A stretch of DNA of 64,000 nt from a virus (IMGVR_UViG_3300035208_002115), one strand, 5' to 3'. Positions 20,291 through 64,000 are shown, counted from the stretch's first letter. The notes: a model not told the origin generated them from the sequence alone. Numbers and translations are program-made.

Positions 20291-20785
20291 TTAAATATCA
20301 GATATAGTAATTTCTGATGTTGCACAATATGGACTATGTATAGTTAGTTCTTCAAATACTTCATTACCTAGTCCGTCAAGTAATATATCACCTGTTCTAT
20401 GTTCATAAATAACATCACCGTTTTCATCTAATACTATATCACCGTTTTCATCTATTTTTAAAATATCTTGATGATAATAACTATATTTTTTTTCAGTTAA
20501 ACCACTAACAAATATAGACTGTACTTTATTGTGTATAAATGATAAGATATCAGAGCCGTCAGTTGTTCTATTATATGGTAAATCATACACTGGTCTGAAC
20601 ATAAATCCATTAATATCTAAAGAATTTTTTTCTAAATCTTCAATATACTTTGATTTTGATGCATATACAACACCTATAACTCGTATATTATCTGATTTAA
20701 GATTCATATTATATAGCAATCTAAGGTATATTTGTTCTAAAGTAATACCTTTATAATTCATTTGTTTTGTTATTATTAACCCCAT
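20291..20785 (-). CDS. Fibre-associated hypothetical protein
   Basis: Position in fibre operon; DENGD duplication. Confidence 0.65.
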   Translation of the reverse strand: MGLIITKQMNYKGITLEQIYLRLLYNMNLKSDNIRVIGVVYASKSKYIEDLEKNSLDINGFMFRPVYDLPYNRTTDGSDILSFIHNKVQSIFVSGLTEKKYSYYHQDILKIDENGDIVLDENGDVIYEHRTGDILLDGLGNEVFEELTIHSPYCATSEITISDI

Positions 20786-20787
20786 AT

Positions 20788-22638
20788 TTATTTTTTATTT
20801 TTTAAAATATCTATTTCTTCTTTCAATTCTTTTATACTTTTTATCAAAAATGGTATAATTTGTTCATAATTAACAGTTTTATACATTTCATCTTCAGGTT
20901 TTCCCAACAAATTATGTTCTTTAACTATTTCTGGTAAAACTTTTTCAACATCTTGTGCTATTAAACCATAAACAGTTCCTATTGATGATTTCTTAGGGTC
21001 TTTCCATGTAAAAGATACTGGATTTAATTGGTCAATAATTGATAAACCACTGTCAATATTTTTAACATTTTCTTTTAATCTATTATCTGAAGGAACAGTA
21101 CTTGAATATGCAATAATATCACTTTCAGCGTGGAATACCCCTGCACTTGTAAATCTAAAATAATCAGTACTGGATGCAAAAGTTATACCTATATATCCAG
21201 ATGCTGCAAATAAACCATATCCAGTATAACTGGCAAATGAAAAAGATGGTGCTGATGAAGAACCATTAGCCCCTATAAATTTAGTGCTATATGTATTCGA
21301 AAATAATCTTGTACTACTACCCAATGCATATGTATTTGTGCTTTCTGGTGTAATAGTACCGCCTAATGATATTGCATCTAAAGTAGATGTGCCATTTACT
21401 GTTAAGCCAGCAAATGTTGGTGAACTTGATGTTAAAACCGCTTGGTTTAAATAAGTCGCAAATTGATTACCATCCCATAAATCAGCGTCCAGACCAGAAC
21501 TGCTACCATCATTAGCTTCTGTCCATATTTTGTACCAAGAACTTGCTGATGGTGAAGCACCACCACTTATAGTTCTCGTATACAAATACCCAGCATTTGT
21601 GTAATCAGAAATTATCTGTGTACTATAATTATATGTTGATGTGTTAGAAGTATGTGCCATTGTTAAACACCAAAACCAGTTAGCATTGGGTGTCCAAGCA
21701 GCCCCATTAACTTCCCAAAACCCAGATTTATATTGAGGTAATTCTAATAAGTTTTGAGTAGCATTTGCAGTATTACTACCACTACCATTACTACCATATA
21801 TAAATTTAGATGGTGCAACTGATAAGTTATTTATAGAAGTTGATAATGAACTATCGGCTGAACTTACAGTTGAATTAGTTGTAGAAATAGCCGTTGATAA
21901 TGATGTGTCTGCACTGCTTCTTGTTGAGTTTGCAGTAGAAATAGCCGTTGATAGTGATGTATCGACAGAGCCTCTTGTTGAAATTTCACTTGATAAAGCT
22001 GTTGATAGTGAGGTTACACCAGTGACATTGATATTAGCGATAGCAGTACTTAGTGATGTATCACCAGTATCGACATAATTTCTATGAACAATATCATTAC
22101 TACCTGTTATAGCATAAGTAGAATTATATGTCATTTTACCATAAACCGTTCCACCAGATATATTTAAGTAGTAGCCATCTGCGTTCAAGGTTGTCTGATT
22201 TTTCCAAGTACCACCAGTATACACTAATATGTCACCTGCTGATAATGATGTTATCGTGACATCTGTTAATCCAGACAAATAACCACCACTATTAACATTA
22301 ATTGCAGTTGCTAAAGATGAATCTGCCGAACTTCTTGTCGAGTTTGCAGTGGAAATGGCTGTTGATAAAGATGTGTCTGCACCACTCCTTGTTGAGTTTG
22401 CAGTAGATATAGCTGTTGAGAGTGATGTATCAGAAGATGACCTTACTGATTCCTCAGTTGATATTGTAGTTGACAATGTTAATCCAACATAAGATACAAC
22501 CGCACCCTCAGTAGTTAATGCTGTACTATATGTACCAGACCCCTGTGTATCTATTTCACCTTCAAGTCTTATTAAGTCAATCGTTGGGGAAGTATATGTA
22601 TCACCTGATAATTGTATGCTATTGGTTATTAAACCCAT
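20788..22638 (-). CDS. Tail fibre protein with SLST repeats and C-terminal peptidase S74 intramolecular chaperone
   Basis: SDNRLKENV...GLIAQDVE...VNYEQIIPFLIKSIKEL; GLDADLWDG; DTSLSTAIS repeats. Confidence 0.88.
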   Translation of the reverse strand: MGLITNSIQLSGDTYTSPTIDLIRLEGEIDTQGSGTYSTALTTEGAVVSYVGLTLSTTISTEESVRSSSDTSLSTAISTANSTRSGADTSLSTAISTANSTRSSADSSLATAINVNSGGYLSGLTDVTITSLSAGDILVYTGGTWKNQTTLNADGYYLNISGGTVYGKMTYNSTYAITGSNDIVHRNYVDTGDTSLSTAIANINVTGVTSLSTALSSEISTRGSVDTSLSTAISTANSTRSSADTSLSTAISTTNSTVSSADSSLSTSINNLSVAPSKFIYGSNGSGSNTANATQNLLELPQYKSGFWEVNGAAWTPNANWFWCLTMAHTSNTSTYNYSTQIISDYTNAGYLYTRTISGGASPSASSWYKIWTEANDGSSSGLDADLWDGNQFATYLNQAVLTSSSPTFAGLTVNGTSTLDAISLGGTITPESTNTYALGSSTRLFSNTYSTKFIGANGSSSAPSFSFASYTGYGLFAASGYIGITFASSTDYFRFTSAGVFHAESDIIAYSSTVPSDNRLKENVKNIDSGLSIIDQLNPVSFTWKDPKKSSIGTVYGLIAQDVEKVLPEIVKEHNLLGKPEDEMYKTVNYEQIIPFLIKSIKELKEEIDILKNKK

Positions 22639-22659
22639 TTTACATTATTTAATTTTTAG

Positions 22660-22669
22660 TATATATTAA
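22660..22669 (-). promoter_or_regulatory. TTAATATATA putative late promoter
   Basis: 21 nt upstream of fibre start 22638. Confidence 0.55.
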
Positions 22670-22682
22670 AATATAAATTTTG

Positions 22683-23834
22683 TTAATCTACATCTCCATC
22701 GGAATAAAGTCTAATTATACCACCACTGGAATTCCCATTATAGTGATTATATGCACCAAGAATTATTATTTTATTATCACTTTGTATCGACATACCAGTG
22801 GTTTGACCATCAAATCCACTTCCAACATTAAATGTACTATCATATGTACCATCATTATTTAGCCTTGCTATATTATTAATAGGTGTTACATCATAATATG
22901 ATAAAAATCCAGATATAATATATTTGTCGTCATTTTGTTTTACAATATTCCACGCAGTACCATCAAAACTATAACCACTATTAAAACTACTATCAATACT
23001 ACCATCACTGTTTAATCTTTTAATATAATAATTATTATAAATCACCACAATTTTATCATCATTTTGAACCACCATATCTAAAGCTCCATATGTAGAACCT
23101 GTATAAAATGAAGTATCAAAAGTACCATTTGTGTTTAGTCGGGCTAATCCATAACAAGTATATCCACTGTATGTGGAAAATGTGCCACCAACTAATATTT
23201 TACCTGTTGATTGTAGTCCGATTGAAAATACTGTACCATCAAACCCAGTTCCAATAGTAAAACCACTATCGAGACTACCGTCTGTATTTAATCTTACAAA
23301 TCTATTTCGTGTAGTACCACTATATGAGGTAAATTCTCCACCAACTAATATTTTATTATCTGTTTGTAGTTTTATTTCTTCTACTATTGGAAAAGAACCC
23401 CCTGAAAAACCACTATCAATAGTAAAACCACTATCAATACTACCATTTGAATTTAATCTAATTATTCTGTTTCGAGTAGTACCACTATATGAGGTAAATT
23501 CTCCACCAACTAATATCTTACCATCACTTTGAATTTCTAACGCATATGCTGATGGATATGTACCACCTATACCACTACCTATTACAAATGTATCATCTAT
23601 ACCACCATTTGAATTCAATCTTATAATACCATTATAGGTGACACCACTATATTGTGTAAATCCACCAGAAACTATTATTTTATTGTCAGTTTGTAACATA
23701 ACTTTATACGGTGAACCAGTAAATCCATCACCTGAGAAAAATGTGTGGTCTTTTATTTGGATGTATTTTGATAATATTCTTTTATTACTACCACTTAATA
23801 ATCTATTATTATGACTTAATAATATATTACCCAT
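22683..23834 (-). CDS. Delta-60-repeat beta-propeller protein (putative virion adhesin)
   Basis: About 7 repeats of LQxDxKILVGGxF...RLNxxGxxDxxF; near-identical DNA copies 165 nt apart. Confidence 0.85.
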   Translation of the reverse strand: MGNILLSHNNRLLSGSNKRILSKYIQIKDHTFFSGDGFTGSPYKVMLQTDNKIIVSGGFTQYSGVTYNGIIRLNSNGGIDDTFVIGSGIGGTYPSAYALEIQSDGKILVGGEFTSYSGTTRNRIIRLNSNGSIDSGFTIDSGFSGGSFPIVEEIKLQTDNKILVGGEFTSYSGTTRNRFVRLNTDGSLDSGFTIGTGFDGTVFSIGLQSTGKILVGGTFSTYSGYTCYGLARLNTNGTFDTSFYTGSTYGALDMVVQNDDKIVVIYNNYYIKRLNSDGSIDSSFNSGYSFDGTAWNIVKQNDDKYIISGFLSYYDVTPINNIARLNNDGTYDSTFNVGSGFDGQTTGMSIQSDNKIIILGAYNHYNGNSSGGIIRLYSDGDVD

Positions 23835-23836: not shown

Positions 23837-26143
23837 TTAAACCATTTTATTTTTATAGGTATACACGCCACTATTACATCTTTGAAATTCTAACTCACCA
23901 TTTATATTTATAAACCATCTCCAAGAATTTTCAGTAAATGGTGTTCCTAAATAATAATAACTTGAAGCGTCTATGATTGTTGAACCTGTTACACTCAGAT
24001 TTGCACCATCAAATTTCAAGTTTGATTCTCCAATTATACCATTTACTGTACCATTAGATGTTAATAATCTATCATCACCATAATTAGTAATATTTGTCCC
24101 GCCAGATATATTATTTATAGCAGTACTCAACGAGGTGTCAGTAGATGTTCGGACAGAAGTTTCTGATGATATAGCTGTTGATAATGAGGTGTCGGCTGAA
24201 CTTCTTGTCGAATTCGATGTCGAAATAGCAGTAGATAATGAAGTGTCAGCAGAGCCTCTTGTTGATAATTCAGTAGAAATCCCAGTACTTAATGATGTAT
24301 CAAATGATGTTCTTGATGAAATTTCAGATGATAAAGCACTTGATATTCCAGTCACTGTTATGTAATCAATATTAGTTAAATGGTAATATTGCCCAGATGT
24401 ACCACCTTGTAATCCAGATAATGTGTTGTGGTCAGTACCAGAACCACTCCCAACAGTTGTTGTAGTAGAAATGTTTATTCTAATTGGTGTGGCAGACAAA
24501 CGACATTTACCTTTAGAACCATATGAGTTTGAAGTTTCCCATGTGAGTTGATATGCTATTATAGATTCAGCAATCGGTAAACCAGTCCAGTCAAAAGTTA
24601 ATGGATTTTCAGCTTGTGCCAGTGCTAACGATGAGAACTGGCCTCGACCTGATACTATTGAAAATCTTGCTGTTAAATTCTGGTCTGTGAATAATAAATA
24701 AGTATTATAAAAATTATTTGCTGAACCAGCCGTCATTGTACCATTATTATCATATTCAACAAAACCAATAGTCGTATATTTAAACGGAACTTCAGAAGGT
24801 TGCCATGTCCAACCAGTAGTACTGGTTCTATAATATATATTGTACGCATTTGTTGTACCATTAGGTCTTGTAAGACCAGAAAGAACTTGTATTAAATCTT
24901 CATCTGCTATTGTTGTTTCACTTACACCTAATGTATTATCTGCGTCAGTAGCTGATTGTACAGTCGGGCCAGTTAATACACCACCACTAACGAATCGTGT
25001 TCCAGATGTTTCATGTAAATACTTATGCATTCTTCTATCTATAAGAACTGAATGTCGTTCTTCAGCCATGTGGTATTTTGGAGTATTTGAATTATTCCAT
25101 CTTATAGTAGCAACTGGTAATTTCAAATCAGTTAAAGTCCACCCTGTTGTTGATTGTATTATAGTTCCATCAGTTGAATCTAATGTAATAAAATATGTAC
25201 CTGTTGCTGGCGGTGTACCTGGTAGCGTGACCGTTTTATTACCACTAATTGTATACTTTAACCCACCTCTATAATATGACCAACCACTACCCGTATCAGC
25301 TAATGTGAATGTGTATGTTGTATCATTAAATGATATTGAAGTTTCATTATTATTTAAAAATCCACAACGATTAATATCAACCCAAGGTTGTAAAGTAGCT
25401 GTTGATAATGATGTATCGGCTGAACCTCTTGTTGATATTTCAGTTGAAATTGTTGTTGTTAAAGATGTGTCGGCTGAACCTCTTGTTGATATTTCAGTTG
25501 AAATTGTTGTTGTTAAAGATGTATCAGCAGAACTTCTTGTAGAGGCTTCACCAGAAATTGCAGTTGATAATGATGTATCGGCTGAACCTCTCGTAGAAGC
25601 TTCAGTTGAAATAGCAGTTGATAACGATGTATCAGCAGTCCCCCTTGTAGAAGTCTCAGTTGAAATTGTTGTTGAAAGCGAAGTTTCAGTAGATATCCTT
25701 GATGATAATGAAGTTGATAATGATGTGTCGGCTGAACCTCTCGTAGAAGCCTCAGTTGAAACGGCTGTTGATAATGAAGTATCTGTTGATATTCTTGTTG
25801 AAATAGCAGTTGATAATGATGTATCGGCTGAACCTCTTGTTGATATTTCAGTTGAAACGGCTGTTGAAAGAGAGGTTTCAGTAGATATCCTTGATGATAA
25901 TGAAGTTGATAATGAAGTGTCGGCTAAACCTCTTGTTGATATTTCAGTTGAAACGGCTGTCGATAATGATGTGTCAGCAGTTGCTCTCGTAGAAGTCTCA
26001 GTTGAAATTGTTGTTGATAATGAAGTATCTGAACTTCCTCTTACAGAAATTTCAGATGAAATTGCTGTTGATAATGATGTGATGCCAGTTACAATCATCC
26101 CTTCAACATAAGCTGCCTCATTTATATATATTGATTTAGGCAT
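23837..26143 (-). CDS. Fibre-like structural protein with long SLST-repeat stalk
   Basis: N-terminal ~250 aa of 14/18-aa repeats; HNTLSGLQGG..GQYYHL; NYGDDRLLTS module. Confidence 0.8.
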   Translation of the reverse strand: MPKSIYINEAAYVEGMIVTGITSLSTAISSEISVRGSSDTSLSTTISTETSTRATADTSLSTAVSTEISTRGLADTSLSTSLSSRISTETSLSTAVSTEISTRGSADTSLSTAISTRISTDTSLSTAVSTEASTRGSADTSLSTSLSSRISTETSLSTTISTETSTRGTADTSLSTAISTEASTRGSADTSLSTAISGEASTRSSADTSLTTTISTEISTRGSADTSLTTTISTEISTRGSADTSLSTATLQPWVDINRCGFLNNNETSISFNDTTYTFTLADTGSGWSYYRGGLKYTISGNKTVTLPGTPPATGTYFITLDSTDGTIIQSTTGWTLTDLKLPVATIRWNNSNTPKYHMAEERHSVLIDRRMHKYLHETSGTRFVSGGVLTGPTVQSATDADNTLGVSETTIADEDLIQVLSGLTRPNGTTNAYNIYYRTSTTGWTWQPSEVPFKYTTIGFVEYDNNGTMTAGSANNFYNTYLLFTDQNLTARFSIVSGRGQFSSLALAQAENPLTFDWTGLPIAESIIAYQLTWETSNSYGSKGKCRLSATPIRINISTTTTVGSGSGTDHNTLSGLQGGTSGQYYHLTNIDYITVTGISSALSSEISSRTSFDTSLSTGISTELSTRGSADTSLSTAISTSNSTRSSADTSLSTAISSETSVRTSTDTSLSTAINNISGGTNITNYGDDRLLTSNGTVNGIIGESNLKFDGANLSVTGSTIIDASSYYYLGTPFTENSWRWFININGELEFQRCNSGVYTYKNKMV
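25390..26085 (-). repeat. In-frame tandem repeats (54/42-nt units) encoding DTSLSTAISTEASTRGSA
   Basis: Repeating GTTGATAATGATGT.TC.GC.GAACCTCTTGT on the plus strand. Confidence 0.9.
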
Positions 26144-26193: not shown

Positions 26194-28464
26194 TTAATAC
26201 GTTATAATATAATTTATGTATCTTTTAGCGTTATTAGTTGAACTAATTTTTGCATTTTCCATCCAATATATTTTCTCTTTTTGATTCCAAGGGGTATTAG
26301 ACCCAGAGCCTGTATAATCCAGACCATTTGATAAGAAATTGACCTGTGCTTCAGTTAAGTCCCACGCATTACCACCATATGTACCCAAACTACCAAGTTG
26401 TTCTGTTGTACCCGATACAGTGTCACCTATACCTGAAATATTAATAGAAAAATTAACATAAGTGAAATATTTTTTATTAACAAACAAATAATCTATAAAG
26501 GCATTAGAACCAGTCACACCAGTATTACCATTTATATAAAAATTGCTAATACCACTATATAAAGTGACACCCGACAAAGTTCCTTGTATATTACAATTAT
26601 CTACTCTAAAATCGAAAGCTCTGTTTATTAAATTAAAATCCGTATTAATATTCGATGATATTTCTGAATTTGAAGCAATTAAAGTATAAACATTATAATG
26701 TTTTAATGCACCTGATAAGCCAGTATTATCTAAAAATAAATTTGTTGTACCACTAATAATCCATGATGTAGTATCACCAGATAAATTTGGGTTGTTCCTT
26801 ATATCTAAGGATGTAGTAACCCCTGTCCCACCGTACCATGAAGAAATATCACAATTGAGAGAACAATTGCGAATTGCGAAACTCTGAATTTTATGAGCTG
26901 GAAAATTTCCCATATCACTTGATATGGGTGTATATGCTAAATCTAAAGCTTGCATATTTTTATTTATAATGAAATTATCAATATTACCCGTCATACCACT
27001 TAAATAACCTAATGTTAAATAAATTAAATTATTTGTATTGAATACACCTTCATCAAAATCTATATAAATATCATTCATACTTAAATAAAAGTATATTAGA
27101 GATGTTGGTAAAACCGTACCTGTAATATTACCATATAAATTATTATTATATAACTGCAAATTAGTTATTGCTGAATTAAAAGTTAAACCAGATATATAAC
27201 CAGTGATATTTAAATTCCCATAAAGAAATAGTGAGGTGGTAGCCGATGGTATTGTAAAGTCATGTATATTACCTGTTAATTTATTGCTTGATAAATTGAT
27301 GGAGAAACTATTTGGTAATGTTATATTATTAATGTCATCTATTAAATTACCATTATTTGTTAATGAAAAGTATGTAACACCAGTTGGAAATGTGATTCCA
27401 GTCACTGATGTTAAAGAGGTCATATTATTAATATTGAATGAATTTAGATTTGTATTTGAATAATTAAGTGGCACTCGTGTAACTTGATATAAACCTGATA
27501 TTTGGATATCTTTTAATGTATCTGGTAAGACCCAATTAGATAAATCACCACTTATTATACCATTTGATGAATTAGAATCATGTATTAATATTGATGTACA
27601 TTTTGTATCACTAAAATCCCAGTTTGTAAGGTCTCCTGTTATATAATAACCACTTATAAATGTAAAAAGAGTTAACCCAGTACTAAATATCCAGTTTGTC
27701 ACATCACCAGTTATTAGATTGGAAGTAATTGGTTTGTTATAATAGAAATAATTCAATTTTGATACATCAATTGTAGATAAATTACCTGTTACCAAACTAC
27801 TTCCATTCAAAAAAAACGATTCAAGATTTACATTATTAAATAAGTTGTTTATGTTACAGTTCAAAGTATTAACATTATTGAGTGATATTTTTCTTAAATT
27901 GCTAAATGGTATATTAGATACATTACCTGTAACTGGACAAGAATTCAGCGATAAATCTTCTAAATTTACTATATTGTTTATAGTATTTATATTCCCAGTT
28001 ATTGTACTATCATATATGTGAAAATATTTTAATCTACTTGGAAATGTTTTATAACTTATATTATTACTAAATGAACTATGTTGGAATTCTAATGTTTCCA
28101 AGTTCGGGAATTGATTCATAAAATCAAACAAATCACCAGTATCGTAATTACTATCTGATGTTGTTTTAAATGTTATTACAGAATTTAAATTACCAAATGT
28201 GTAAACTTTTTTTGAACTGCTTTCACTGGTAGGTGATATCAATTGGTCAAAGTTTGTAACATTTGATGTATAAACTATTTTCACCATCCCAGTAGGTTTT
28301 TCAAAATAAAATTTAAATGGATTAGTAGCTGTAACACCACTTAGCGTGATTGTATACCTGTAATAATATGATTGGGTTGAAGCCAAATAAGAATTTATTA
28401 CAGTTGATTTAAGTATATACCCATCCTTATTTTTTAATATAGTATCATCCTTATTCTTAATCAT
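26194..28464 (-). CDS. Leucine-rich-repeat protein (putative virion/adhesin)
   Basis: Repeated LxxLxLxxxx[IV]TG[ND][IL]xx units; within fibre operon. Confidence 0.75.
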   Translation of the reverse strand: MIKNKDDTILKNKDGYILKSTVINSYLASTQSYYYRYTITLSGVTATNPFKFYFEKPTGMVKIVYTSNVTNFDQLISPTSESSSKKVYTFGNLNSVITFKTTSDSNYDTGDLFDFMNQFPNLETLEFQHSSFSNNISYKTFPSRLKYFHIYDSTITGNINTINNIVNLEDLSLNSCPVTGNVSNIPFSNLRKISLNNVNTLNCNINNLFNNVNLESFFLNGSSLVTGNLSTIDVSKLNYFYYNKPITSNLITGDVTNWIFSTGLTLFTFISGYYITGDLTNWDFSDTKCTSILIHDSNSSNGIISGDLSNWVLPDTLKDIQISGLYQVTRVPLNYSNTNLNSFNINNMTSLTSVTGITFPTGVTYFSLTNNGNLIDDINNITLPNSFSINLSSNKLTGNIHDFTIPSATTSLFLYGNLNITGYISGLTFNSAITNLQLYNNNLYGNITGTVLPTSLIYFYLSMNDIYIDFDEGVFNTNNLIYLTLGYLSGMTGNIDNFIINKNMQALDLAYTPISSDMGNFPAHKIQSFAIRNCSLNCDISSWYGGTGVTTSLDIRNNPNLSGDTTSWIISGTTNLFLDNTGLSGALKHYNVYTLIASNSEISSNINTDFNLINRAFDFRVDNCNIQGTLSGVTLYSGISNFYINGNTGVTGSNAFIDYLFVNKKYFTYVNFSINISGIGDTVSGTTEQLGSLGTYGGNAWDLTEAQVNFLSNGLDYTGSGSNTPWNQKEKIYWMENAKISSTNNAKRYINYIITY

Positions 28465-28480: not shown

Positions 28481-31400
28481 TTAAAAGATATATCCCTCTA
28501 CTAATAAATGCGCTGATAATGGATTTACATTCGTAGATGCCGAGGACACCCTAAAATATACAACACTACCAGATGACTGTGTTACTGCATTTTGAGTTAC
28601 TTCTAACTCATATGTTTCATTCGTTAACACATCGTTAATAACCAATGAAGGTGATAAATTATTATAAGAAGAATTATTATTACCAACACTTATAGTAAAT
28701 GCTGTTGGTGAAGCGTCATTCAATATTATTAATTTAAATCTATTAAACAATACTCTTTTACCTGTTGGAATAGTTAATATAGCAGTATTACCAATAGATT
28801 TTAGATTAATATTTTGAACGAATATAAAATTTTGCAAAGTTGTAAATACATCAAAATCCGTTTTAAATACAGTATGAGTTGGGTAAGCATATTTTTGACC
28901 AATATAAGTTATTCCACTTTCGGTACTAACCCATTCATCAACTACATCTATTTCTTGTACAATGTTATTTGTCGAACCAATCCATGTTTTACCACTTGTT
29001 AATGGTCTATTGTATGATTCTTTAACCCAATAATTACCAGTTTTATTATATCTAAGAAATACATCTTCAAGACTTAAATTAACATTTATAGCAATACTTC
29101 CACTATCGTAGAAATTATCAAAAGTATAGTTAAATGTTCCATCATTTTGTGGTTCGGGTCTATACCACTGGCTATCTGCTAAACCACTTGGAACTGACGA
29201 ATTTTTAGTAATATTACCCAAAAATCCCCCACCAGCACCAGTTAACCCAGAGTTAACCCATTGCGAACCATTATAAACTAAATATTGTCCACCTGACAAA
29301 GATGATAACGTAACATCAGTTAAACTATCAAGATTAGTAGAAATAGATATACCAGAATTAACCCATTGTGAACCATTATAAGTCAATATTTGAGTTGAAG
29401 ACGGTGTTGTTATTGTAACGTCTGATAATCCATCTAAATTCAAGTTTGTTGATAAAACACCACTACCATTAATAGACAATCCAGTGCCAACCATTATAGC
29501 ACCTAATGAAACTGCACTGGCCATCGGTAAGTCACCTGGGCTGATGGTTGTTGAAGCGTTTTTATATGTGATATTAGCCCACTGAACAGTTAAATTAACA
29601 TTTGTCCACGTTGCAGAATTAATATAAATTGTTGTATTTACAGTGTTTGATAATCTCATATTTACCGTAACCGATACTGTTTCACCAGAGGTCACTGAAA
29701 TAGTTTTATATGGTGTTATTTCATTTCCAGTCACAGTTGTACCTAAATTAACTTCGGCTGTTGTAGTACCAGTATTAGTGATATATACCATACCAAGTGT
29801 CTGTCCTGATACTAATATACCTAAATCTCTGTTTGAAGTGACACCAGTGTAAGAATATAGGTTAGCTAATGTAGAATTTGTAATATAATTGTTATCAATA
29901 ATAAATTGGCCATTACCGTTTATTAAAATACCATCCGAACCCGTAATATAAGACGCAGAATTAAAAATGTGTGTGTGCGAATTAGTTGACACAGAATTTG
30001 TAGAACCAGTATTTATATCAGATGGTGTACCAAGAGTTACTGAACCAGATGATGTAATAGTTGAAAAATTCATACCATTACCTGCTGAAATAGAAGTCAC
30101 TGAACCAGTAGACGCAGTACCATATGTTATTTGACCTGTTGATGTGTTATAAAATAAAACATTTGATTGGCTCGATGATGGTAATCCAGATATGTAAGTA
30201 TTACCTGTAACAGCCAACGAACCATTCACATTTAAACGTGAATTAACAAAAGTCAAATTAGAGCTTGTGTATATTTGTTTTGTATCGTTATTCCAAAATG
30301 TGATACCACTTGAAATAGGTGAGTCTTCTCTTGTAGCAACAGCTTGTAACGAACCTATTTCACCAACCCTGAATGTATCATAAGTTTCATTGAATATAAA
30401 TTGGTAATTTGTTAATGAACCTCTTTCAACTTCGATACCAGCTATAATCGAAGTGACACCAGAGCCAGTTTCACCGCTATTTATCAAAATCAAATTATCA
30501 GAAACCTGCATATTTTGGGTGTTAATAGTAACAGTAGTACCAGAAACATATAAATTACCCAGAATATTTAGATTACCATTTAATAACATTTGACTCCCGT
30601 CAAAAGTTAAATTAGATTCAGCAACCATCCCTTTTTGTGTACCATCAGATGTTAGTAACCTATCATCACCATAATTTGAAATGACCGTTCCACCAGAAGC
30701 ACTAACTAAACTGTCAATATAATATTTATTTACAATATCATTAGTATTAGTGAATGACAACCCAGTAGCTGAATACCTCATAATATCACCGATAGATATT
30801 TTAGCACCAGAATCAACAGTTGTGTAAATATAAACTGAACCTAATTGTTTATCCTCTATGTATGTAGCACCTGGTATAGAATCCACGTATGAACCACTGT
30901 TTATTTTAACATTACCAGCTATTACCCCACCCACTCGTGATAGTCCACCTTCAAGTATTAAATCACCGCCTGAATTATCGCTCACACCACCTGATATAAT
31001 TGTAGTACCACCTGATAAAACACCATCACCAGCTCTGAATACAGCAGCACCACCAATACTATTACCGCCACCAGCAATAATATTAATCCATCCCCCATCA
31101 CCAGTTGTATTCTCAGCTCTCATCATAATACTATCACCATGATTAGCTGTCCTTGGCGTGTCATCCCCAAATAATGATATAAATGGGCCAATTAATAATG
31201 CTCCATAATTTTCAACATCAAAATTATAATATGATTGCAATGCTTGTATACTTCTACTATCTGGTGTATCATAAAATTTTATTTTACTTGAACCACTTAA
31301 ACTAACAATAGAATTATTAAATGATAACGTATTTGTAGTTGAATTAAATGTCATACCAGTGTTGGCATTTATGCCATTTGCCGTACCATCAGATGTTAAT

Positions 31401-49141: not shown

Positions 49142-49142
49142 T

Positions 49143-50846: not shown

Positions 50847-50872
50847 TATAGTTAATATGATAATTTTTGTTT
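50847..50872 (-). promoter_or_regulatory. AAAC-N18-TATA putative promoter
   Basis: Conserved spacing; upstream of 50791. Confidence 0.5.
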
Positions 50873-50891
50873 AATAATCGAATAAAATTTT

Positions 50892-51545: not shown

Positions 51546-51561
51546 ATTAAAAAATTCTTTT

Positions 51562-55792: not shown

Positions 55793-56917
55793 CTAATATT
55801 TTTTTATTAGTGTTTTTAACAAATTATTATATATGCTTATATTTATTTCATTATCAGCATCATAAGAGAAAATTGTTTTTTTATTTCTTTCATTATATTC
55901 TTCCAGATTCTTGTCGTGATTTTCCAAAATCCATATTAATTTATCAGTAGCATTTTTACCATTAAACCCCTCATAATAATATCCAACATTTTTACACATG
56001 TGGGCGTTATGTAATATAGCGTGTCCAAGGTAAGCCACATCCAAATAAAAATAATTCAAAGGATTATCCCATTGGTGACTGACGACTATATCAGCATAAT
56101 CGGCTAAAAATTCAACGGTTGAAAATCTATCCTCGAATGTTGCCTTATGGTCTTTAACAATACTTAAATGATTCATGTATTCCACAAAAACTTTATGTTT
56201 TCGAATATTAAATGTATTAGTAACAAATAATTTCTCTATTAATTCTGGTCTTTGTTCATATACATCATCAACAATCAAAATCGGATACATAGCATACTTC
56301 AAAACATCTTGATTAGGTTCAAGTATTGCTATGGATTTAGGTGTGTTTTTTGGTGTGTAACGAGGGTTATTTTTTAATGATGATGCTAATTCATCAATTA
56401 AAAAAGAATCCCATATAAACGGAACAGATTTTACATTTTTATTTTTATGAAATCTATTGAAATAATATTTATTTTGTTCAAAAACCTGTGGTACACACCA
56501 TATTTCATCGTAATCTGGATTACACCATATTATAGAACTTCCAACATCTTGATTAAATAAAACATTTTCCATTCTAATAACATATTCATTACCACATTTG
56601 TACGAAACTATTTTTGTTTTTCTTTTCTTTAAGTATGTAGTCATAGATTGGTCAATCTGTCCACCGAGAGATATTAATATATCAATATCATCTTTTACAT
56701 CCGAAATATGATGTACTGGAAATTCTTTTGTATCAAATGCGAATTGAGTAAATTCTTTACTTGTTGTATTAGCGAAAAATACGTTATATTTCCCAATGTT
56801 TTTAAGAAGTTTAGCTAAATATAAACCATTTAGTTTGATGCCATTTATCCATAAACCTTCATTATTACTTCTAACACCTAATGTGATAGCAATATTCTTC
56901 ATTGTTGCAGTTGCCAT
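55793..56917 (-). CDS. DUF2827-family protein (putative GT-B glycosyltransferase)
   Basis: W.NGI, YKCGNEY, DEIW.VPQ, PFIW, EPN, DIVVSHQWDNPLNY, HN...GYYY. Confidence 0.75.
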   Translation of the reverse strand: MATATMKNIAITLGVRSNNEGLWINGIKLNGLYLAKLLKNIGKYNVFFANTTSKEFTQFAFDTKEFPVHHISDVKDDIDILISLGGQIDQSMTTYLKKRKTKIVSYKCGNEYVIRMENVLFNQDVGSSIIWCNPDYDEIWCVPQVFEQNKYYFNRFHKNKNVKSVPFIWDSFLIDELASSLKNNPRYTPKNTPKSIAILEPNQDVLKYAMYPILIVDDVYEQRPELIEKLFVTNTFNIRKHKVFVEYMNHLSIVKDHKATFEDRFSTVEFLADYADIVVSHQWDNPLNYFYLDVAYLGHAILHNAHMCKNVGYYYEGFNGKNATDKLIWILENHDKNLEEYNERNKKTIFSYDADNEINISIYNNLLKTLIKKY

Positions 56918-56930
56918 TCAAATAATATTT

Positions 56931-58562
56931 TTATTTTTTAAAATAAACACCAATAGTATTATTGCTCCAATTTTTTTGTAAATTCGGATACCTTCTAACC
57001 ATTATTTCTTCTGTTAAATCATCTTGAATGTGGTCTTCGTTTTTATTTTCGAGACCGAATTGTTTCATAAGAAATGGTACACTAATTATTAGTTGTTTAC
57101 ATTTATCATATAATTTGTTTATGAGATTTTGTGCATCTTCAATAGTCAAATGTTCTAAAATATCACCCATTATGATTATATCATAATAATCGAAATTAAA
57201 ATCTATTATATTTGTTGTATAAACTTTTCTATATTTTGTTTTTAATTTATATTTTTTTATGTATGGTTCATAAATTTCAACAGCATCGATATTTTCATAT
57301 TCACTAAGAATATTAGAATACGTCCCACAACCAGCACCAACATCTAATATGGTAACACCAGTGTTAAAATTACTTAATATATAATCCTTTATTTCTGACT
57401 TAAAAGCACCAAAACTTGTAGGAACAAAATTCGATGCTATGGATTTAGTATTAACCAGATTACATATTAGTTCATCATATTTTTTTATAACATCAATATT
57501 ATCGGTAGAATATCTATCTAATACTTTTTGATTTTTTTCATCATATTCTTCAAGATGATTATCGTGTTCGGTTAAAGCATATAATAATTGTTTTTTTCCT
57601 TCTGTCACATTAAACCCTTCATAGTAATATCCACAATCTTTACATAAATGAGCATTATGTACTAATGGATAACCTAAATATATAGCATCCAGATAGGCAT
57701 AATTTAAAGCATTTTCCCATTGATGAGATACCACTACATCAGTATGTTCAGTTAAAAACCATGTAATTGGGAATCTATTTTCAAATGTGGTCTTTTTATC
57801 TTGAACTATTGTCAAATGATTCATAATAGAAGTTAATTCTTTAGTCAATCTAACTTTTTGGGTGTTTGTTACTTTAACACTATGAAATAGTTCTGGGTGT
57901 TCCCTATATGCATCTTCTATAATTAACATCGGATACATTAAAAATTTATAAACATTTATATTGGGTTCGAATATTGAAATTTTTTTACTTAGTTTACTCG
58001 GTATGTAATAAGGATTTTTTCCCTGTTTTTTTAATTCATCTATATGGCTATTTAAAAATAAAGGATTCCACACAAAAGGTATAGTGATTGTCTCAGCATT
58101 GTGTAAAACTCTCCAGTAATGATGGTTTGTATTTTCCATTTGAGGTATATTCCATATTTGGTCTACCTCTGGGTAATCTTTTACAATATCTTGGCGATTA
58201 AATATGATATTTTCCATACTAATCACATATTCGTTACCACATTTATATGGAACTACTTTACATCCTCTATTTCTTAAATATTCTGTTGTTGGTTTATCGA
58301 TTGAACCACCTAAAGGAAATATAATATCTAATTTATCTTTTATATCATTAAATTGGACTGTTTTATATTCTATCAAATCCCACCCCAATATATTTGTAAT
58401 ATTAATATTACTCGTGTTGACAAGATATACGTTATAATTTTGAGTAGAATTTTGAAACGTTTTTGCCAAAAAAATCGCATTCTGTAATATACCATTAGTC
58501 CATACACTTTGATTTTCTTCATGTAAAAAAATTGTTATCCCAATATTTAATTTTGAATTCAT
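56931..58562 (-). CDS. DUF2827-family protein fused to a class I SAM methyltransferase domain
   Basis: DUF2827 motifs (WTNGI, EPNINVYK, SHQWENALNY) then ILDVGAGCG...GDILEHL. Confidence 0.78.
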   Translation of the reverse strand: MNSKLNIGITIFLHEENQSVWTNGILQNAIFLAKTFQNSTQNYNVYLVNTSNINITNILGWDLIEYKTVQFNDIKDKLDIIFPLGGSIDKPTTEYLRNRGCKVVPYKCGNEYVISMENIIFNRQDIVKDYPEVDQIWNIPQMENTNHHYWRVLHNAETITIPFVWNPLFLNSHIDELKKQGKNPYYIPSKLSKKISIFEPNINVYKFLMYPMLIIEDAYREHPELFHSVKVTNTQKVRLTKELTSIMNHLTIVQDKKTTFENRFPITWFLTEHTDVVVSHQWENALNYAYLDAIYLGYPLVHNAHLCKDCGYYYEGFNVTEGKKQLLYALTEHDNHLEEYDEKNQKVLDRYSTDNIDVIKKYDELICNLVNTKSIASNFVPTSFGAFKSEIKDYILSNFNTGVTILDVGAGCGTYSNILSEYENIDAVEIYEPYIKKYKLKTKYRKVYTTNIIDFNFDYYDIIIMGDILEHLTIEDAQNLINKLYDKCKQLIISVPFLMKQFGLENKNEDHIQDDLTEEIMVRRYPNLQKNWSNNTIGVYFKK

Positions 58563-58676: not shown

Positions 58677-60617
58677 TTATGTAGTTACTACATATTTAAT
58701 TTTAACGTCATCAGTTGTTTCGATTGCGAATCCAGCTTCTACACCATCAAAATATAATGGTGTACCAGCAGATGTTGGAGTAACACCGTTTGTATGGAAT
58801 ACAGCAGGTGAACCTTGTGCATATTCGAATGTATATTCGATACCGTTTAAAAATACTATAACAGTAGATTCATCAATTACACCCCCAGTTACACCATGTG
58901 CAAAAGCAGTACCAATATTTACAGCAGTTGTAGAACCACTAATTGCTGGTGATAATAACTGTTCAAAATAACTTGGAGCTTGAATATTACTGATTGCAGT
59001 TTCTAAAGATGTGTCAGCAGTACCTCTTGTTGATGCTTCAGTTGAAACAGCAGTTGAAATACCAGTTGCTAATGAAGTGTCAGCACTGCCTCTTGTTGAT
59101 GCCTCAGTTGAAATAGCTGTTGATAATGATGTGTCAGCAGTACCTCTTGTTGATGCTTCAGTTGAAACAGCAGTTGAAATACCAGTTGCTAATGAAGTGT
59201 CAGCACTGCCTCTTGAAGAAATTTCACCTGATAAAGCGGTTGATAATGAATCTACGCCAGCAGTTGAACCAGATGTCAAAGAAGCTATTTGTGTACTTAA
59301 CGATGTGTCGGCTGAACTTCTTATTGAAGCTTCACCAGAAATAGCAGTTGTTATTGATGTGTCAGCAGACCCTCTTGTTGATGCTTCAGTTGAAATAGCT
59401 GTTGATAATGATGTGTCAGCAGACCCTCTTGTAGATGTTTCAGATGATAAGGCAGTTGATAACGATGTATCTGATGAGTTATTAGCTGAAATAGCAGTTG
59501 ATAATGACGTGTCAGCACTACCTCTTGTTGATGTTTCAGTTGAAACAGCAGTTGATAATGATGTATCAGCAGTACCTCTTGTTGATGTTTCAGTTGAAAT
59601 AGCTGTTGATAATGAAGTGTCAGCAGTACCTCTTGTTGATGCTTCGGTTGAAACAGCAGTACTTAATGAAGTAGCAGCAGATGTATTACCAGAAATAGCA
59701 GTTGCTAATGATGTATCAGCACTGCCTCTTGTAGATGTTTCGGTTGAAACAGCAGTACTTAATGAAGTAGTAGCAGATGCGTTACCAGAAATAGCTGTTG
59801 ATAATGATGTGTCAGCAGTACCTCTTGTTGATGCTTCAGTTGAAATAGCTGTTGATAATGATGTATCTGATGAATTATTTGATGATATTTCAGATGATAA
59901 CGCAGTTGACAATGATGTTACATTACCCTGATTATTTGATATTTGAGTGATAACAGATGAAGCAACCCTTACACCAGAAGAAGTTTTACTTAGAGTACCA
60001 CCATCTAATTCAAGTGAGAAAACAGTACCAGTAAGGTCTAATCCTTCACCGTCTGTACTATATGTACCAGGCGAAGAAATCTTTACCCATCCTTGTGTAT
60101 CAACGTTAACTACAATTTCTGTTTCTGGTACAGCATCAGTAGTAGCTAAAACCCAACCAGTTTTTCCATTAACTGTTCCATTTTCAACAAATACAAAGTC
60201 ACCAGTAGAAACTTCGTTAGTTGGAGTACCATCAAAATCAAATGGTCTTATCCAAGCACCAGCCTTAACCTGCCATACACCATTAGATGGGTTTTGGTCA
60301 GTTGCACCTGCACCACCTTGATTTGTTAAAAGTACTCTATCATCTACTGATAATAAAAAATCATCAATAGTTGTTGTACCAGTTAATACTGTTGTACCAG
60401 TAGCCACAGCATGAACTGGTAAATGGGGTACTAATCCACCTGCAACTGCATCAACGTAAGCTTTGTTAACAGCTTGATTGTCAGCCGTTGGTGAACCAGA
60501 TATTATCACATTATATGTTGACATATCCAAATCACCTTGAACTACAACATTACCAGTTGCACCTTTTATAGTAACTGTTTGTTGTGCGATTTGTTTTCCT
60601 TTTAATAATTGAGCCAT
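58677..60617 (-). CDS. Fibre/decoration-like structural protein with ~300-aa SLST-repeat stalk
   Basis: MAQLLKGKQI, AVNKAYVD, DRVLL..Q...NGVW.V..GAW.R..D, repeat tract, C-terminal LNGIEY domain. Confidence 0.82.
   Translation of the reverse strand: MAQLLKGKQIAQQTVTIKGATGNVVVQGDLDMSTYNVIISGSPTADNQAVNKAYVDAVAGGLVPHLPVHAVATGTTVLTGTTTIDDFLLSVDDRVLLTNQGGAGATDQNPSNGVWQVKAGAWIRPFDFDGTPTNEVSTGDFVFVENGTVNGKTGWVLATTDAVPETEIVVNVDTQGWVKISSPGTYSTDGEGLDLTGTVFSLELDGGTLSKTSSGVRVASSVITQISNNQGNVTSLSTALSSEISSNNSSDTSLSTAISTEASTRGTADTSLSTAISGNASATTSLSTAVSTETSTRGSADTSLATAISGNTSAATSLSTAVSTEASTRGTADTSLSTAISTETSTRGTADTSLSTAVSTETSTRGSADTSLSTAISANNSSDTSLSTALSSETSTRGSADTSLSTAISTEASTRGSADTSITTAISGEASIRSSADTSLSTQIASLTSGSTAGVDSLSTALSGEISSRGSADTSLATGISTAVSTEASTRGTADTSLSTAISTEASTRGSADTSLATGISTAVSTEASTRGTADTSLETAISNIQAPSYFEQLLSPAISGSTTAVNIGTAFAHGVTGGVIDESTVIVFLNGIEYTFEYAQGSPAVFHTNGVTPTSAGTPLYFDGVEAGFAIETTDDVKIKYVVTT
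58990..59922 (-). repeat. In-frame tandem repeats (42/54/66-nt units) encoding SLST stalk
   Basis: Repeating GATGTGTCAGCAGTACCTCTTGTTGATGCTTCAGTTGAAA on the plus strand. Confidence 0.9.
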
Positions 60618-61005: not shown

Positions 61006-62127
61006 TTAGGATTTAATTATATTAAATATACACTTTTCATATTCTTCAATAATGTTTTCATTATCAATAGAGTAAATATTTAATATGTTATCACATTGGT
61101 CATTGTATTTATTGACAAAACTTTGATGTTTTGTTATGGCCTGTAATAATTTATTACTTCCCTCAGATAAATTAAATTCTGGATAATAATATAAAGTGTT
61201 TATTTTAGGAGAATTATGTACTAACGGGAATTTAGTATATAAACAATCAAAATATGTATTACTTAAATCATTTTCAAATTGATTAGATACAACTATATCT
61301 GTATAATTACTCAGAATAAATGGTGTTGTATATCTTTCTTCAAATGTTATTTTATTATCCTGTTTTAATTTTAATGTGTTAACAAATGATAAAAATCTTG
61401 GATTTTTATAAAATTTATAAGAATTTAATACTCTGACCTTATCTATAAGTTCGGGTCTTAAATTGTATAACTTCTCAACCAATAATATAGAATGAAGTGA
61501 ATTTTTTAAAATAGTATTATTTTCTTCGAATATGGTTATATCGACACCCCCTCTATTTTTCCTATTATATTTGACATCACTATATTGTAGTTTGACATCA
61601 TTATCAATCATACTTTCTTCATATTTCTTAATGAAAAAATTATCCCATATATAAGGCAAGAATTTAACTTCCTTTTTATAAAGATTTTCTAAATAATATT
61701 TATTTAATTTTTCATTATTAGAGAACGACCATATTTCGTCATAATCATCGTATGCTATAATACTTTTTTTATTCTCAAAAAGAATGTCTTCCGAATCAGA
61801 AATAAAAGCATTTTCAATTTTAAATAATACAATTTTTGTTTTACATAATTTTAATACGGTAAAATACTCATTAGATAATTTTTTACCCATTTCTATGAAC
61901 AAATCAAAATGTATATCATTTACTGGGTCTACAAACTCAACATTTTTAAATAAATCTGGAATGTCAGTATCCAAAGTATCAATTGGCACACCAAAATTTA
62001 CAATATATGTATTTACATCTGGTATTTTTTTTAATAGAAAATAGAGAAAAAAAATTTTTTGAATTTCACCATCTGACCATATATTAAATTTATTATCATT
62101 GACTCCGAAAGAAATACCGATATTCAT
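61006..62127 (-). CDS. DUF2827-family protein (divergent third copy)
   Basis: WSDGEIQ, DEIW, PYIW, FEEN, DIVVSNQFENDLSN, PLVHNS, YYYP. Confidence 0.7.
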   Translation of the reverse strand: MNIGISFGVNDNKFNIWSDGEIQKIFFLYFLLKKIPDVNTYIVNFGVPIDTLDTDIPDLFKNVEFVDPVNDIHFDLFIEMGKKLSNEYFTVLKLCKTKIVLFKIENAFISDSEDILFENKKSIIAYDDYDEIWSFSNNEKLNKYYLENLYKKEVKFLPYIWDNFFIKKYEESMIDNDVKLQYSDVKYNRKNRGGVDITIFEENNTILKNSLHSILLVEKLYNLRPELIDKVRVLNSYKFYKNPRFLSFVNTLKLKQDNKITFEERYTTPFILSNYTDIVVSNQFENDLSNTYFDCLYTKFPLVHNSPKINTLYYYPEFNLSEGSNKLLQAITKHQSFVNKYNDQCDNILNIYSIDNENIIEEYEKCIFNIIKS

Positions 62128-62208: not shown

Positions 62209-62230
62209 ATCAATAAAAAAGGTTTGAATA

Positions 62231-62584
62231 ATGGACACAATTACTCTCGATATTCAGAATAAGAATGAAGCATTAGATTTTCTAATACAAGAAATACGAA
62301 TTATAAAAATTCAAAATCCACAAATAAATAATATAGTAACTAATAACAAGGTGGTATCTGGATTTGAAAATCTATCACATGAAAGTATTAAAACACATTT
62401 TATACCTTCAGATACCACTGATAATAAAACGATAATTCGTAAATTTTTATTAGATGATATCGAAATATCACTTGATACACAAATGGTATATGAAGATGTC
62501 AGATTAATATTTAACGAATGTGATAATATTATATTGGAAATGAATATTAACGATATGTATAATAATTTGGGGAGTAAGGGTTAA
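62231..62584 (+). CDS. Hypothetical protein
   Basis: 117-aa ORF with promoter motif and downstream terminator. Confidence 0.65.
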   Translation: MDTITLDIQNKNEALDFLIQEIRIIKIQNPQINNIVTNNKVVSGFENLSHESIKTHFIPSDTTDNKTIIRKFLLDDIEISLDTQMVYEDVRLIFNECDNIILEMNINDMYNNLGSKG

Positions 62585-62616
62585 TTTTTAATTATGTTAA
62601 GTGTAAGCTTTAAATG

Positions 62617-62646
62617 AAAAAAGAGGGAAATAATCCCTCTTTTTTT
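62617..62646. terminator. Bidirectional intrinsic terminator
   Basis: AAAAAAGAGGGA-aataa-TCCCTCTTTTTT between convergent genes. Confidence 0.8.
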
Positions 62647-62669
62647 ATGTGTATTGAGCTTAACTTGGT

Positions 62670-64000
62670 CTAAACCAATGAGATATATGAGTATTTAATT
62701 ACAATTAAATCAATACCCGATTCTATTCCAAACCCACCTTCCGTTGCATCATAAAATAAGGTTGAACCTTGGACGGCAGGGAAAGCATTAAAATAAAATG
62801 GCATGTTAGTTTGGCTTGAAGTTGACATACTTATTAAATATTCAACACCGTTAATACTTGCTTGTACTGGAGTTATTGGTTCGTATGTTAAAACTAAACC
62901 AGTTGAGCCAGTTGTACCAGTAACTATTGTTGCTGAATATGTTGATTGAATCCAGATTTGTGAACCTCTCAACTCATCATTAACTATTTTTAATGTATAG
63001 TTATCAACATTTACGTTTAATTCCTGATTGCCATTATCATTATATGTTAAACCAGAACCAGCAGTCTGAGCAGTAACACCACTTAAATTGTTAATTACAG
63101 TTTCTAATGATGTATCACCAGATAATCTATTTGATATTTCAGTTGAAATAGCAGTAGATAAAGAAGTATCATCATAAGTATTACCTGTTATTACATTTGA
63201 TAATGCAGTAGATAACGAAGTAGTTTCACTACTTAATACCGTAATAGTCGAACTATTTGTTGATATTACAGTTTCTAAAGATGTTAATCCTGTTACAGCG
63301 TTCCCAATTGATGTTTCTAATGATGTTGTATAACCAGTTGTAATTTGTAAAGTGTTAGTCGAAATTTCGATAGTCACACCATCAACACTAACGTTTAATT
63401 CCTGATTACCATTATCATTATAAGTTAAACCAGAACCAGCAGTCTGAGCAGTAACACCACTTAGATTGTTAATTACTGTTTCTAACGATGTATCACCACC
63501 AGCTCTTGTTGATGATTCAGTTGAAATTGCAGTAGACAAAGAAGTATCATCATAGGTATTACCTGTAATGAAATTTGATAATTCTGTTTCTAATGATGTT
63601 AAACCTGTTATAGAATTGCTTATAGCAGTTGTTAATGAAGAAACACCAGTACTAATTTCAGTTTCTAAAGATGAAATACTACTTGTTAAGGATTCAGTTG
63701 TAGCACTCAACGCAAAAATATCTGTAACCACTGGTGTTGCAAGTCTTAAACCATCAACACTCTGATATAAACCAGAATTATAATTATGAAAAGTAGTACC
63801 ACTAAATTCAGTTTCATTTAATTCAACAGAAAAAATATCACCATTTAATTTAAGTGCATTTCCATCAGCAGTATAAGCTTTACTTGTAGCAAAAATTGTC
63901 CAAACCTGACTATCAACACCAACAGTAATATAACCTTGTGAATTTAATGAACTTGAATTACTAATAACCCAAGATGTCGCAACATTAGTTTCACCCGATG
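62670..64000 (-). CDS. Fibre/decoration-like protein, paralog of 58677-60617; 5' end beyond the window
   Basis: Frame stays open past the track's GTG at 63731 to the edge (SGETNVATSWVIS...YTADGNALKLNGDIFSVEL); SLST/SLET repeats; INGVEY...GFGIE...IKY C-terminus. Confidence 0.8.
   Translation of the reverse strand, partial: SGETNVATSWVISNSSSLNSQGYITVGVDSQVWTIFATSKAYTADGNALKLNGDIFSVELNETEFSGTTFHNYNSGLYQSVDGLRLATPVVTDIFALSATTESLTSSISSLETEISTGVSSLTTAISNSITGLTSLETELSNFITGNTYDDTSLSTAISTESSTRAGGDTSLETVINNLSGVTAQTAGSGLTYNDNGNQELNVSVDGVTIEISTNTLQITTGYTTSLETSIGNAVTGLTSLETVISTNSSTITVLSSETTSLSTALSNVITGNTYDDTSLSTAISTEISNRLSGDTSLETVINNLSGVTAQTAGSGLTYNDNGNQELNVNVDNYTLKIVNDELRGSQIWIQSTYSATIVTGTTGSTGLVLTYEPITPVQASINGVEYLISMSTSSQTNMPFYFNAFPAVQGSTLFYDATEGGFGIESGIDLIVIKYSYISLV
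63013..63570. repeat. Internal duplication with 378-nt (126-aa) period
   Basis: ITGNTYDDTSLSTAISTE...INNLSGVTAQTAGSGLTYNDNGNQELNV twice; copies begin at 63013 and 63391. Confidence 0.85.

Follow-up and report, generated by a model that had tools for sequence, protein, structure and literature searches.

A lineage-restricted [S/T]-G-x-T motif on the appendage proteins of a megaphage and its possible reading as an O-glycosylation acceptor site

Known glycosylation systems and the megaphage motif

Cytoplasmic enzymes of the BAHT type, TibC and AAH, modify many Ser residues over the beta-solenoid adhesins TibA and AIDA-I, and the mapped Ser-313 of TibA lies in the sequence QN-S-G-G-A (PMC4358343). 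These enzymes are the closest precedent for the behaviour proposed here for the tetrapeptide [S/T]-G-x-T, a real, lineage-restricted and selection-maintained tag at turns, modelled as exposed, of the appendage proteins of the megaphage IMGVR_UViG_3300035208_002115 (source genome G000). The window, i.e. the whole 64,000-nucleotide stretch that was analysed (G000:C1:253370-317369), carries in its right half fibre-like genes at 20.3-33.2 kb and 58.7-64 kb, with a glycan locus of about 25 kb between them. Common to the motif and the BAHT substrates are the many Ser in a patterned surface distribution, the Ser-Gly pair at a turn and a surface adhesin as substrate. The differences are that the BAHT enzymes are Glyco_transf_9-type heptosyltransferases, that Thr is unmodified in TibA with no fixed Thr at +3 known, and that the carriers here span several unrelated folds. 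Glyco_transf_9 (PF01075) is absent from G000 and from its complete 640-kb relative G001; the published genome LR756501 (W03) alone has two matches of 36.9 and 33.5 bits, at LR756501.1 303037-303198 and 580354-580668, one of them inside the glycosyltransferase (GT) cluster of that genome.

Among tailed phages, mycobacteriophage-encoded GTs reportedly glycosylate virion proteins in the host cytoplasm, evidence that tailed phages are able to modify their own particles in this way. Mycobacteriophages are small actinophages with one or two GTs, and their sites lie in capsid and tail-tube subunits and not in a dispersed fibre turn motif; to our knowledge, no sequon of this kind has been described for them. 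The N-x-[S/T] sequon of oligosaccharyltransferase (OST), PglB and HMW1C/NGT and the Bacteroidota sequon D-[S/T]-[A/I/L/V/M/T] resemble the motif as short sequences with a hydroxyl residue at a fixed offset, occurring across unrelated folds and kept in number while their positions drift. They differ in that here the Gly is obligatory and two hydroxyl residues stand three positions apart, and the Bacteroidota pathway is periplasmic, unlike the assembly of phage particles, which is cytoplasmic. Neither is enriched in the carrier proteins described below, N-x-[ST] occurring 317 times against 344 expected (0.92x) and D-[ST]-[AILVMT] 85 times against 96.2 (0.88x).

An original prediction, made from the window's sequence, had likened the motif to the Ser-Gly attachment site of proteoglycans. 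The Ser-Gly core is indeed common to both, and the locus also holds GT47-, GT31- and GT7C-like genes reminiscent of linker and heparan synthesis. However, the xylosylation site consists of acidic residues followed by Ser-Gly-x-Gly, whereas position +3 is here strictly Thr, Thr is accepted at position 0 and the flanks are hydrophobic or aromatic and not acidic. The analogy fails because S-G-x-G stands at expectation in the carriers (13 against 13.2, 0.99x).

A three-position motif under selection in one megaphage lineage

Across the 962 open reading frames (ORFs) of G000, [ST]G.T occurs at 292 sites against 95 expected, and these sites are concentrated in about two dozen proteins. In 24 carrier proteins the motif stands at 5.4x over composition, and in the tail and fibre proteins of G000 and some relatives the excess ranges from three to sixteen times chance. 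Residue shuffles, 2000 per protein, bear out the hand counts of the original prediction in the delta-60 protein (7 sites against 0.97), the leucine-rich repeat (LRR)-like protein (12 against 1.3), the 1564-aa fibre (28 against 5.2) and the right-edge fibre (14 against 1.9 within the window, and 19 against 2.4 at its full 701 aa), with z-scores of 6-11 for the window carriers; the 616-aa S74 tail fibre is a modest carrier (6 against 1.95, p=0.012). The motif is also rare in enzymes, as had been claimed, with 2 sites against 1.4 across 31 ORFs of the glycan locus and almost every enzyme at zero. Its scope was drawn too narrowly, in that strong carriers also lie far outside the window. The largest is a 2433-aa protein with a Phage-tail-repeat domain (G000 62225-69526, minus strand; 40 sites against 6.3), and the strongest ratio belongs to a 622-aa protein that is not S/T-rich (G000 328391-330259; 11 against 0.67). 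The 2433-aa protein and the 1564-aa fibre have in common a conserved block, 'SGTT...NSGETG[ST]GVT'. The claim that the motif crosses unrelated folds holds for the propeller, the LRR-like solenoid, fibres and unannotated beta-rich proteins; its extension to coiled coils is unsupported, because the two SLST-richest, coiled-coil-like proteins show no significant enrichment (768-aa fibre, 7 against 3.9, p=0.09; 646-aa protein, 5 against 3.4, p=0.26). Enrichment is lowest where SLST is most abundant, and the strongest carriers are almost devoid of SLST, so that the repeat and the motif are two separate features.

When all 8,000 patterns of the form a-b-x-c were ranked in S/T-rich proteins, SG.T came first (98 against 17.8) and TG.T stood at 64 against 19.5, while SG.S, NG.T, DG.T, AG.T and GG.T were all at expectation. 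Within the 24 carriers, [ST]G.S stands at 0.91, [ND]G.T at 1.4, [^ST]G.T at 0.77 and [ST][^G].T at 1.03, reversed or shifted forms reach 1.3-1.5x, and the full-motif count is twice that given by the pairwise marginals (214 against 111). This is a true three-position dependency among chemically coherent residues. The carriers are often S/T-rich and some contain repeats, such as the 41-aa units of the 2433-aa protein and the 17-18-aa units of a 413-aa protein, which would favour an artefact, whether of S/T/G-rich composition, of internal repeats or of bias in the DNA. Such an artefact is nevertheless extremely unlikely given the shuffle z-scores, the range of only 0.8-1.5x for the same residues in every permuted, shifted or partial arrangement, and the highest ratio being that of a protein that is not S/T-rich; composition does not explain the frequency of the motif, and repeats and DNA-level causes are ruled out by flank clustering and a codon-pair control. 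An SLST module follows immediately after only 8 of the 292 sites; among the other 284, 257 different flank contexts can be told apart, in which hydrophobic residues or Asn at -1 and Tyr or Trp at +4 are weakly favoured. The NNT codon that precedes Gly at position 0 reflects a genome-wide NNT-GGN codon-pair habit seen in every codon family. Before any GGN codon in G000, T-ending codons are far commoner and A-ending codons far rarer than elsewhere in all four-fold families, e.g. Thr is encoded by ACT in 70% of cases before Gly and in 37% elsewhere. Avoidance of deamidation-prone Asn-Gly is likewise ruled out, since the carriers contain NG at 1.19x and DG at 1.27x, as does the rest of the proteome.

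The published 634-735-kb genomes LR756501-4 and LR745206 belong to the Mahaphage clade, with Bacteroidetes as the predicted hosts (PMC7162821), and have 108-139 genes in common with G000 at approximately 37-41% identity. With collagen-like proteins left out of the calculation, the observed-to-expected ratio for [ST]G.T separated the genomes compared into two groups. The first comprises G000 (676 kb, 3.07x, 11 proteins at p<1e-4), G001 (640 kb, 3.12x, nine proteins) and W03 (735 kb, 2.64x, eight proteins), and the second LR756504 (W01; 636 kb, 1.17x), LR756502 (W02; 642 kb, 1.30x) and LR745206 (W04; 635 kb, 1.26x), none of which has a single protein at that threshold. The patterns DGY, D[GAS]T and D.S show no enrichment in any of these six. 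TG.T and SG.T are the top two of the 8,000 patterns in W03 as well, with the same specificity profile, which makes this genome a near-independent replication. W03 also has 13 collagen-like proteins. At aligned G000 motif positions in orthologous proteins, the motif is kept at 8 of 27 positions in W03 and at 4 of 54 in the negative genomes. Since three sister megaphages with matching size and GC content show no excess, the motif cannot be put down to genome size, AT-richness, lifestyle or fold.

Selection on the motif was apparent from 24 orthologue pairs between G000 and G001. Position 0 is kept as S/T in 90.6% of cases compared with 80.1% for other S/T (p=0.003), and the Thr at +3 is kept in 84.9% compared with 74.2% for other Thr (p=0.007). 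The motif Gly is kept as often as other Gly, and the x position, identical in 67% compared with 79% overall (p=0.003), is less conserved than average. The whole motif is kept at 101 of 128 sites, where 52% would be expected (p=7e-10), and the site totals are balanced at 128 and 132, with 102 in common. Gly is replaced in 14 of the 27 lost sites, and the motif-negative genomes keep it at 18 of the 54 aligned positions; from these alignments, Gly does not appear to be structurally required. Individual carriers tell the same story of retained load, with 25 sites against 4.7 in the G001 orthologue of the 1564-aa fibre, 19 sites in that of the right-edge fibre (16 of them shared), and 12, 11 and 12 sites in a trio of LRR orthologues at 45% identity, six being common to all three. 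In the family of the 622-aa protein (36 members), the load is 15.1x, 15.7x and 12.2x at >70%, 45-70% and 20-45% identity respectively, and only 31% of the sites in homologues at 28-45% identity align to within ±3 columns of a query site. The 57 distinct positions in this family comprise a few that are near-universal and a long tail that is lineage-specific. Such retention of load while positions drift would be anticipated if some factor reads the motif, and is difficult to explain by structural need.

Placement of the sites and candidate readers

In the AlphaFold2 (AF2) model of the delta-60 protein (pLDDT 91.8, all-beta), the DSSP string at each Y-S-G-x-T is 'EE--EE', such that the tight hairpin has S-G as its two-residue tip and returns through a strand that begins with x-T. 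In the AF2 core of the LRR-like protein (residues ~270-600, pLDDT 80-94), most sites belong to loops that lead directly into a strand, and a single site occupies a short 3-10 turn; the sequence [ST]G[ND][ILV], distinct from the motif, forms the canonical LRR turn here. Carriers of unknown fold follow the same order of strand, [ST]G, xT and strand. The sites thus appear, on these models, to lie at exposed turns at which S/T-G makes the hairpin tip or pre-strand loop and the Thr starts the next strand.

Such placement is also what would be seen if the motif were purely a structural habit, i.e. the lineage's preferred tight turn into beta-strands that nothing reads. The hydrophobic residues at -1 and aromatic residues at +4, the near-universality of some positions of the 622-aa family (in 33, 31 and 25 of 36 members) and the 37% of delta-60 repeats that already have G and T at +1 and +3, respectively, all fit this explanation. 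It leaves unexplained, however, the rejection of N/D at position 0 and of S, V and I at +3, and Ser is poorer than Asn at a type I' turn. The orthologous proteins of the sister megaphages are without the motif and mostly without Gly at those positions, and the load in the 622-aa family is kept even though 69% of the positions differ. Nor do homologues elsewhere show the excess. Among 119 delta-60 homologues with 701 repeats (consensus GGxFTxYNG), 63% of the repeats carry Asn at the Ser-equivalent position and 3.9% carry [ST]G.T there, for a family-wide value of 0.71x, and 149 ordinary S74-type fibres stand at 1.78x overall with a per-protein median of 1.33x compared with about 1.3x for control patterns. 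Eleven of these 149 fibres are outliers at >=3x, one (P0244) on a 616.6-kb contig; P0250/P0383, P0254, P0012 and P0060 are further proteins that stand out as motif-rich. The motif is therefore not a property of a fold family or a general fibre habit, and the checks that could have undone the original prediction, against composition, homologues elsewhere and the three sister megaphages, came out in favour of a selected motif. Overall, a purely structural origin is considered unlikely.

The delta-60 protein itself illustrates the limits of reading its repeats as separate events. Its GGxFTxYNGxxxNxIxRLNxDGSxD propeller units are present, and the turn is S-G in place of the consensus N-G in four repeats. 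As originally described, YSGxT occurs four times and the last repeat keeps YNG, but the four turns are not independent substitutions, because the repeats were duplicated within one protein and a minority S-type subfamily, a point in keeping with the structural explanation, exists elsewhere. In that subfamily (P0012, P0060, P0039, P0010 and P0022), Y-S-G-[VI]-T is found in nearly every repeat, and one S-type member is annotated as coming from a metagenome-assembled genome (MAG) of candidate division SR1. Scans of a viral collection with the delta-60 protein, P0244 and P0250 as queries gave no match, P0292 led only to an unrelated locus, and the only contig recovered from metagenomes with P0010 measures 3.7 kb.

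A possible explanation for these observations, tentative yet preferred, is that [S/T]-G-x-T is an O-glycosylation acceptor motif on outer tail and fibre proteins. The motif would be a short recognition tag kept by selection in one lineage of Mahaphage-type megaphages, and its most likely reader would be a phage-encoded cytoplasmic GT that O-glycosylates the Ser/Thr at position 0, with Gly giving access and Thr at +3 acting as the specificity determinant. The neighbouring locus would then extend and methylate the glycan, producing a coat on the virion appendages. In a fuller and more speculative form, which is possible but should be held loosely, the motif would be an undescribed sequon read at exposed beta-turns by a GT47-like or GT-D-fold enzyme, the locus would build an appendage coat containing a methylated deoxy-N-acetylhexosamine (deoxy-HexNAc), and the number of sites would remain constant while their positions drift, as in viral glycan shields. 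The proposal that the motif is the recognition site of a phage initiating GT is thus partly supported: the motif is selected, and its placement at turns fits a site that some factor reads, but the proteoglycan analogy does not survive. Neither DUF2827 as the reader nor the sufficiency of a GT locus is borne out by the genome comparisons below.

The GT47-like and GT-D-fold genes are put forward as the best candidates for initiating or lineage-defining enzymes on account of their distribution. Orthologues of the GT47-like gene occur in G001 (76%) and W03 (41-44%), and those of the GT-D-fold gene in G001 (67%), G002 (76%) and W03 (46-47%), with none of either in W01, W02 or W04. These are the only genes of the glycan locus with orthologues in G001 and W03 but none in W01, and every complete motif-positive genome has both, while the three negatives have neither. 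The absence of both from W02 and W04 had been recorded ahead of the scoring of those genomes, which, as predicted, turned out to be motif-negative. In contrast, the presence of a GT locus is not sufficient, as W02 has five GT2 genes and W04 three without any excess of the motif; the number of GT2 genes does not separate the two groups, and the notion that any GT locus suffices is ruled out.

Several points weigh against this reading and against the assignment of these enzymes. Ancestry confounds the link to the two GTs, since G000 has 139 genes in common with W03 and 108-117 with the negative genomes, and the phyletic profile of the two GTs is common to 31 of the 962 G000 genes; the co-occurrence is therefore suggestive and not demonstrative. 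GT-D enzymes are known as elongating, not initiating, enzymes in the glycosylation of serine-rich-repeat adhesins. We know of no GT that uses this sequon, and a literature search for the tetrapeptide motif found no description of it. The motif is not avoided in the remainder of the proteome (1.42x compared with controls of about 1.0), where a promiscuous enzyme acting in the cytoplasm could be expected to drive counter-selection. Exposure was read from the DSSP strings of two AF2 models, of which that of the LRR-like protein is confident only in its core, and virion localisation of most carriers comes from annotation only. That the motif is modified at all, that the modification is a sugar, the accepting residue and the writing enzyme are matters that we infer.

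The same selection, specificity, turnover and lineage restriction would apply if the tag were read by some other lineage-specific factor, whether a non-Hanks kinase, an acylating or ADP-ribosylating enzyme, or a chaperone, decoration protein or lectin-like partner docking on it. In keeping with this, 29 of the 31 genes with the phyletic profile of the motif are not recognisable GTs, and most lie outside the window. However, among the genes that track the motif, only the two GTs can be recognised as modifying enzymes, the largest enzyme investment beside the carrier genes is the glycan locus, and the six genomes (G000, G001 and W01-W04) all lack a Hanks-type kinase, which rules out a Hanks-kinase phosphosite. 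A reader of this other kind is considered rather improbable. The 31 genes also include a hybrid histidine kinase, with an orthologue in W03 and none in W01, W02 or W04.

A further alternative is that the three DUF2827 enzymes encoded on either side of the 646-aa SLST-repeat protein (window 55793-62127) use the motif as their acceptor sequon. DUF2827 proteins are cytoplasmic and GT-like, and stand constantly beside trimeric autotransporter adhesins, often in two or three tandem copies (bioRxiv 10.64898/2026.01.22.700529). The arrangement here is the same, with tandem DUF2827 genes beside an SLST-repeat fibrous surface protein, and the close relatives L001 and L002 have both features. Unlike the motif, however, that association concerns SLST repeats. 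In 41 SLST-rich adhesin ORFs beside bacterial DUF2827 genes, [ST]G.T is depleted (122 against 308, 0.40x), other viral loci neighbour collagen-like fibres at 0.3-0.6x, motif-positive W03 is without any DUF2827, and the SLST-richest proteins of G000 are those least enriched. DUF2827 is accordingly rejected as the reader under a family-wide rule, and its role as such in G000 is very unlikely. An SLST-rich adhesin-like ORF lies within 10 kb (<=10 kb) of the gene in 37 of 80 bacterial DUF2827 loci (L073-L152). The SLST repeat, being common to phage and bacterial DUF2827 neighbourhoods, is a better candidate for the DUF2827 substrate. On other viral contigs, DUF2827 is found beside collagen-like (G-x-y) or very S/T/G-rich giant fibres (L009:14109-16847, L010:13528-18675 and L018:13557-18542; also L003, L016 and L017), and the family also occurs on contigs labelled as giant-virus MAGs. 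A first scan of genome contigs with the phage DUF2827 sequences gave no match.

If the motif is indeed an O-glycosylation acceptor, phage virion glycosylation would gain its first defined sequon, and the motif would amount to a new bacterial-type O-glycosylation rule, cytoplasmic and acting on folded or folding beta-rich proteins. It would also explain the tens of kilobases devoted to glycan synthesis in some of the largest phages, and provide both a sequence-only marker for predicting coated virion proteins and a compact tag-enzyme pair for glycoengineering. Even without a sugar, a drifting tag of constant density in one megaphage sublineage, absent from its sisters, implies a reader. With two named candidate enzymes and several named substrates, a vague idea has become testable.

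Gene content of the window and source genome

Coordinates of the features discussed are given in Table 1. The glycan locus as a whole comprises about a dozen GTs, several methyltransferases, the three DUF2827 genes and the sugar-nucleotide genes.

Table 1. Features of the 64,000-nucleotide window, in window coordinates
Feature	Coordinates	Strand	Basis
Hybrid histidine kinase	16574-18841	+	
Tail fibre, 616 aa, C-terminal S74 intramolecular chaperone	20788..22638	-	Pfam Peptidase_S74 2.5e-17; tail-fibre PHROGs
Delta-60 (DUF5122) beta-propeller, 383 aa, motif carrier	22683..23834	-	Pfam DUF5122 1.3e-77, 7 stretches
SLST-repeat fibre, 768 aa, 16 SLST-type units	23837..26143	-	SLST count
LRR-like solenoid protein, 756 aa, strong carrier	26194..28464	-	Motif count (see text)
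Fibre, 1564 aa, strong carrier	28481..33175	-	Motif count (see text)
RmlD-like reductase, PseB/CapD-type 4,6-dehydratase and UDP-GlcNAc 2-epimerase, with small ORFs in between	34733..40927	-	Pfam RmlD_sub_bind 5.7e-19, Polysacc_synt_2 1.9e-102, Epimerase_2 2.4e-85
Run of GTs and methyltransferases (GT2 x5-6, GT31-like, GT47-like, DXD GT, rhamnosyltransferase-like, FkbM and C-methyltransferases)	41398..55790	-	Pfam
GT47/exostosin-like GT	45393..46250	-	Pfam Exostosin_GT47 7.4e-13
GT-D-fold GT, 269 aa	47589..48398	-	Atlas structure, TM 0.88 to PF08759 GT-D cluster
Two DUF2827 genes, the second fused to a methyltransferase	55793..58562	-	Pfam DUF2827 1.1e-105, 7.1e-118
SLST-repeat protein, 646 aa, 14 SLST units, head-decoration-like N-terminus	58677..60617	-	phrog_2647; SLST count
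Third DUF2827 gene	61006..62127	-	Pfam DUF2827 1.4e-74
Right-edge fibre, cut by the window (full length to ~64775), strong carrier	62670..64000	-	Motif count (see text)

The 1564-aa fibre has no match in Pfam, PHROG or Protein Data Bank (PDB) sequences, and so no sequence relative of solved structure among them. The GT-D-fold ORF likewise has no Pfam, NCBIfam or PHROG match, and its nearest structure clusters are mostly viral and labelled 'glycosyltransferase'; its orthologue in G002 (G002:371139-371933) has an in-frame TAA. The G000 record is a single contig of 675,678 bp with 27.4% GC, classed as a virus, at a CheckV completeness of 98%, and its stop codons (763 TAA, 137 TGA and 62 TAG) indicate the standard genetic code.

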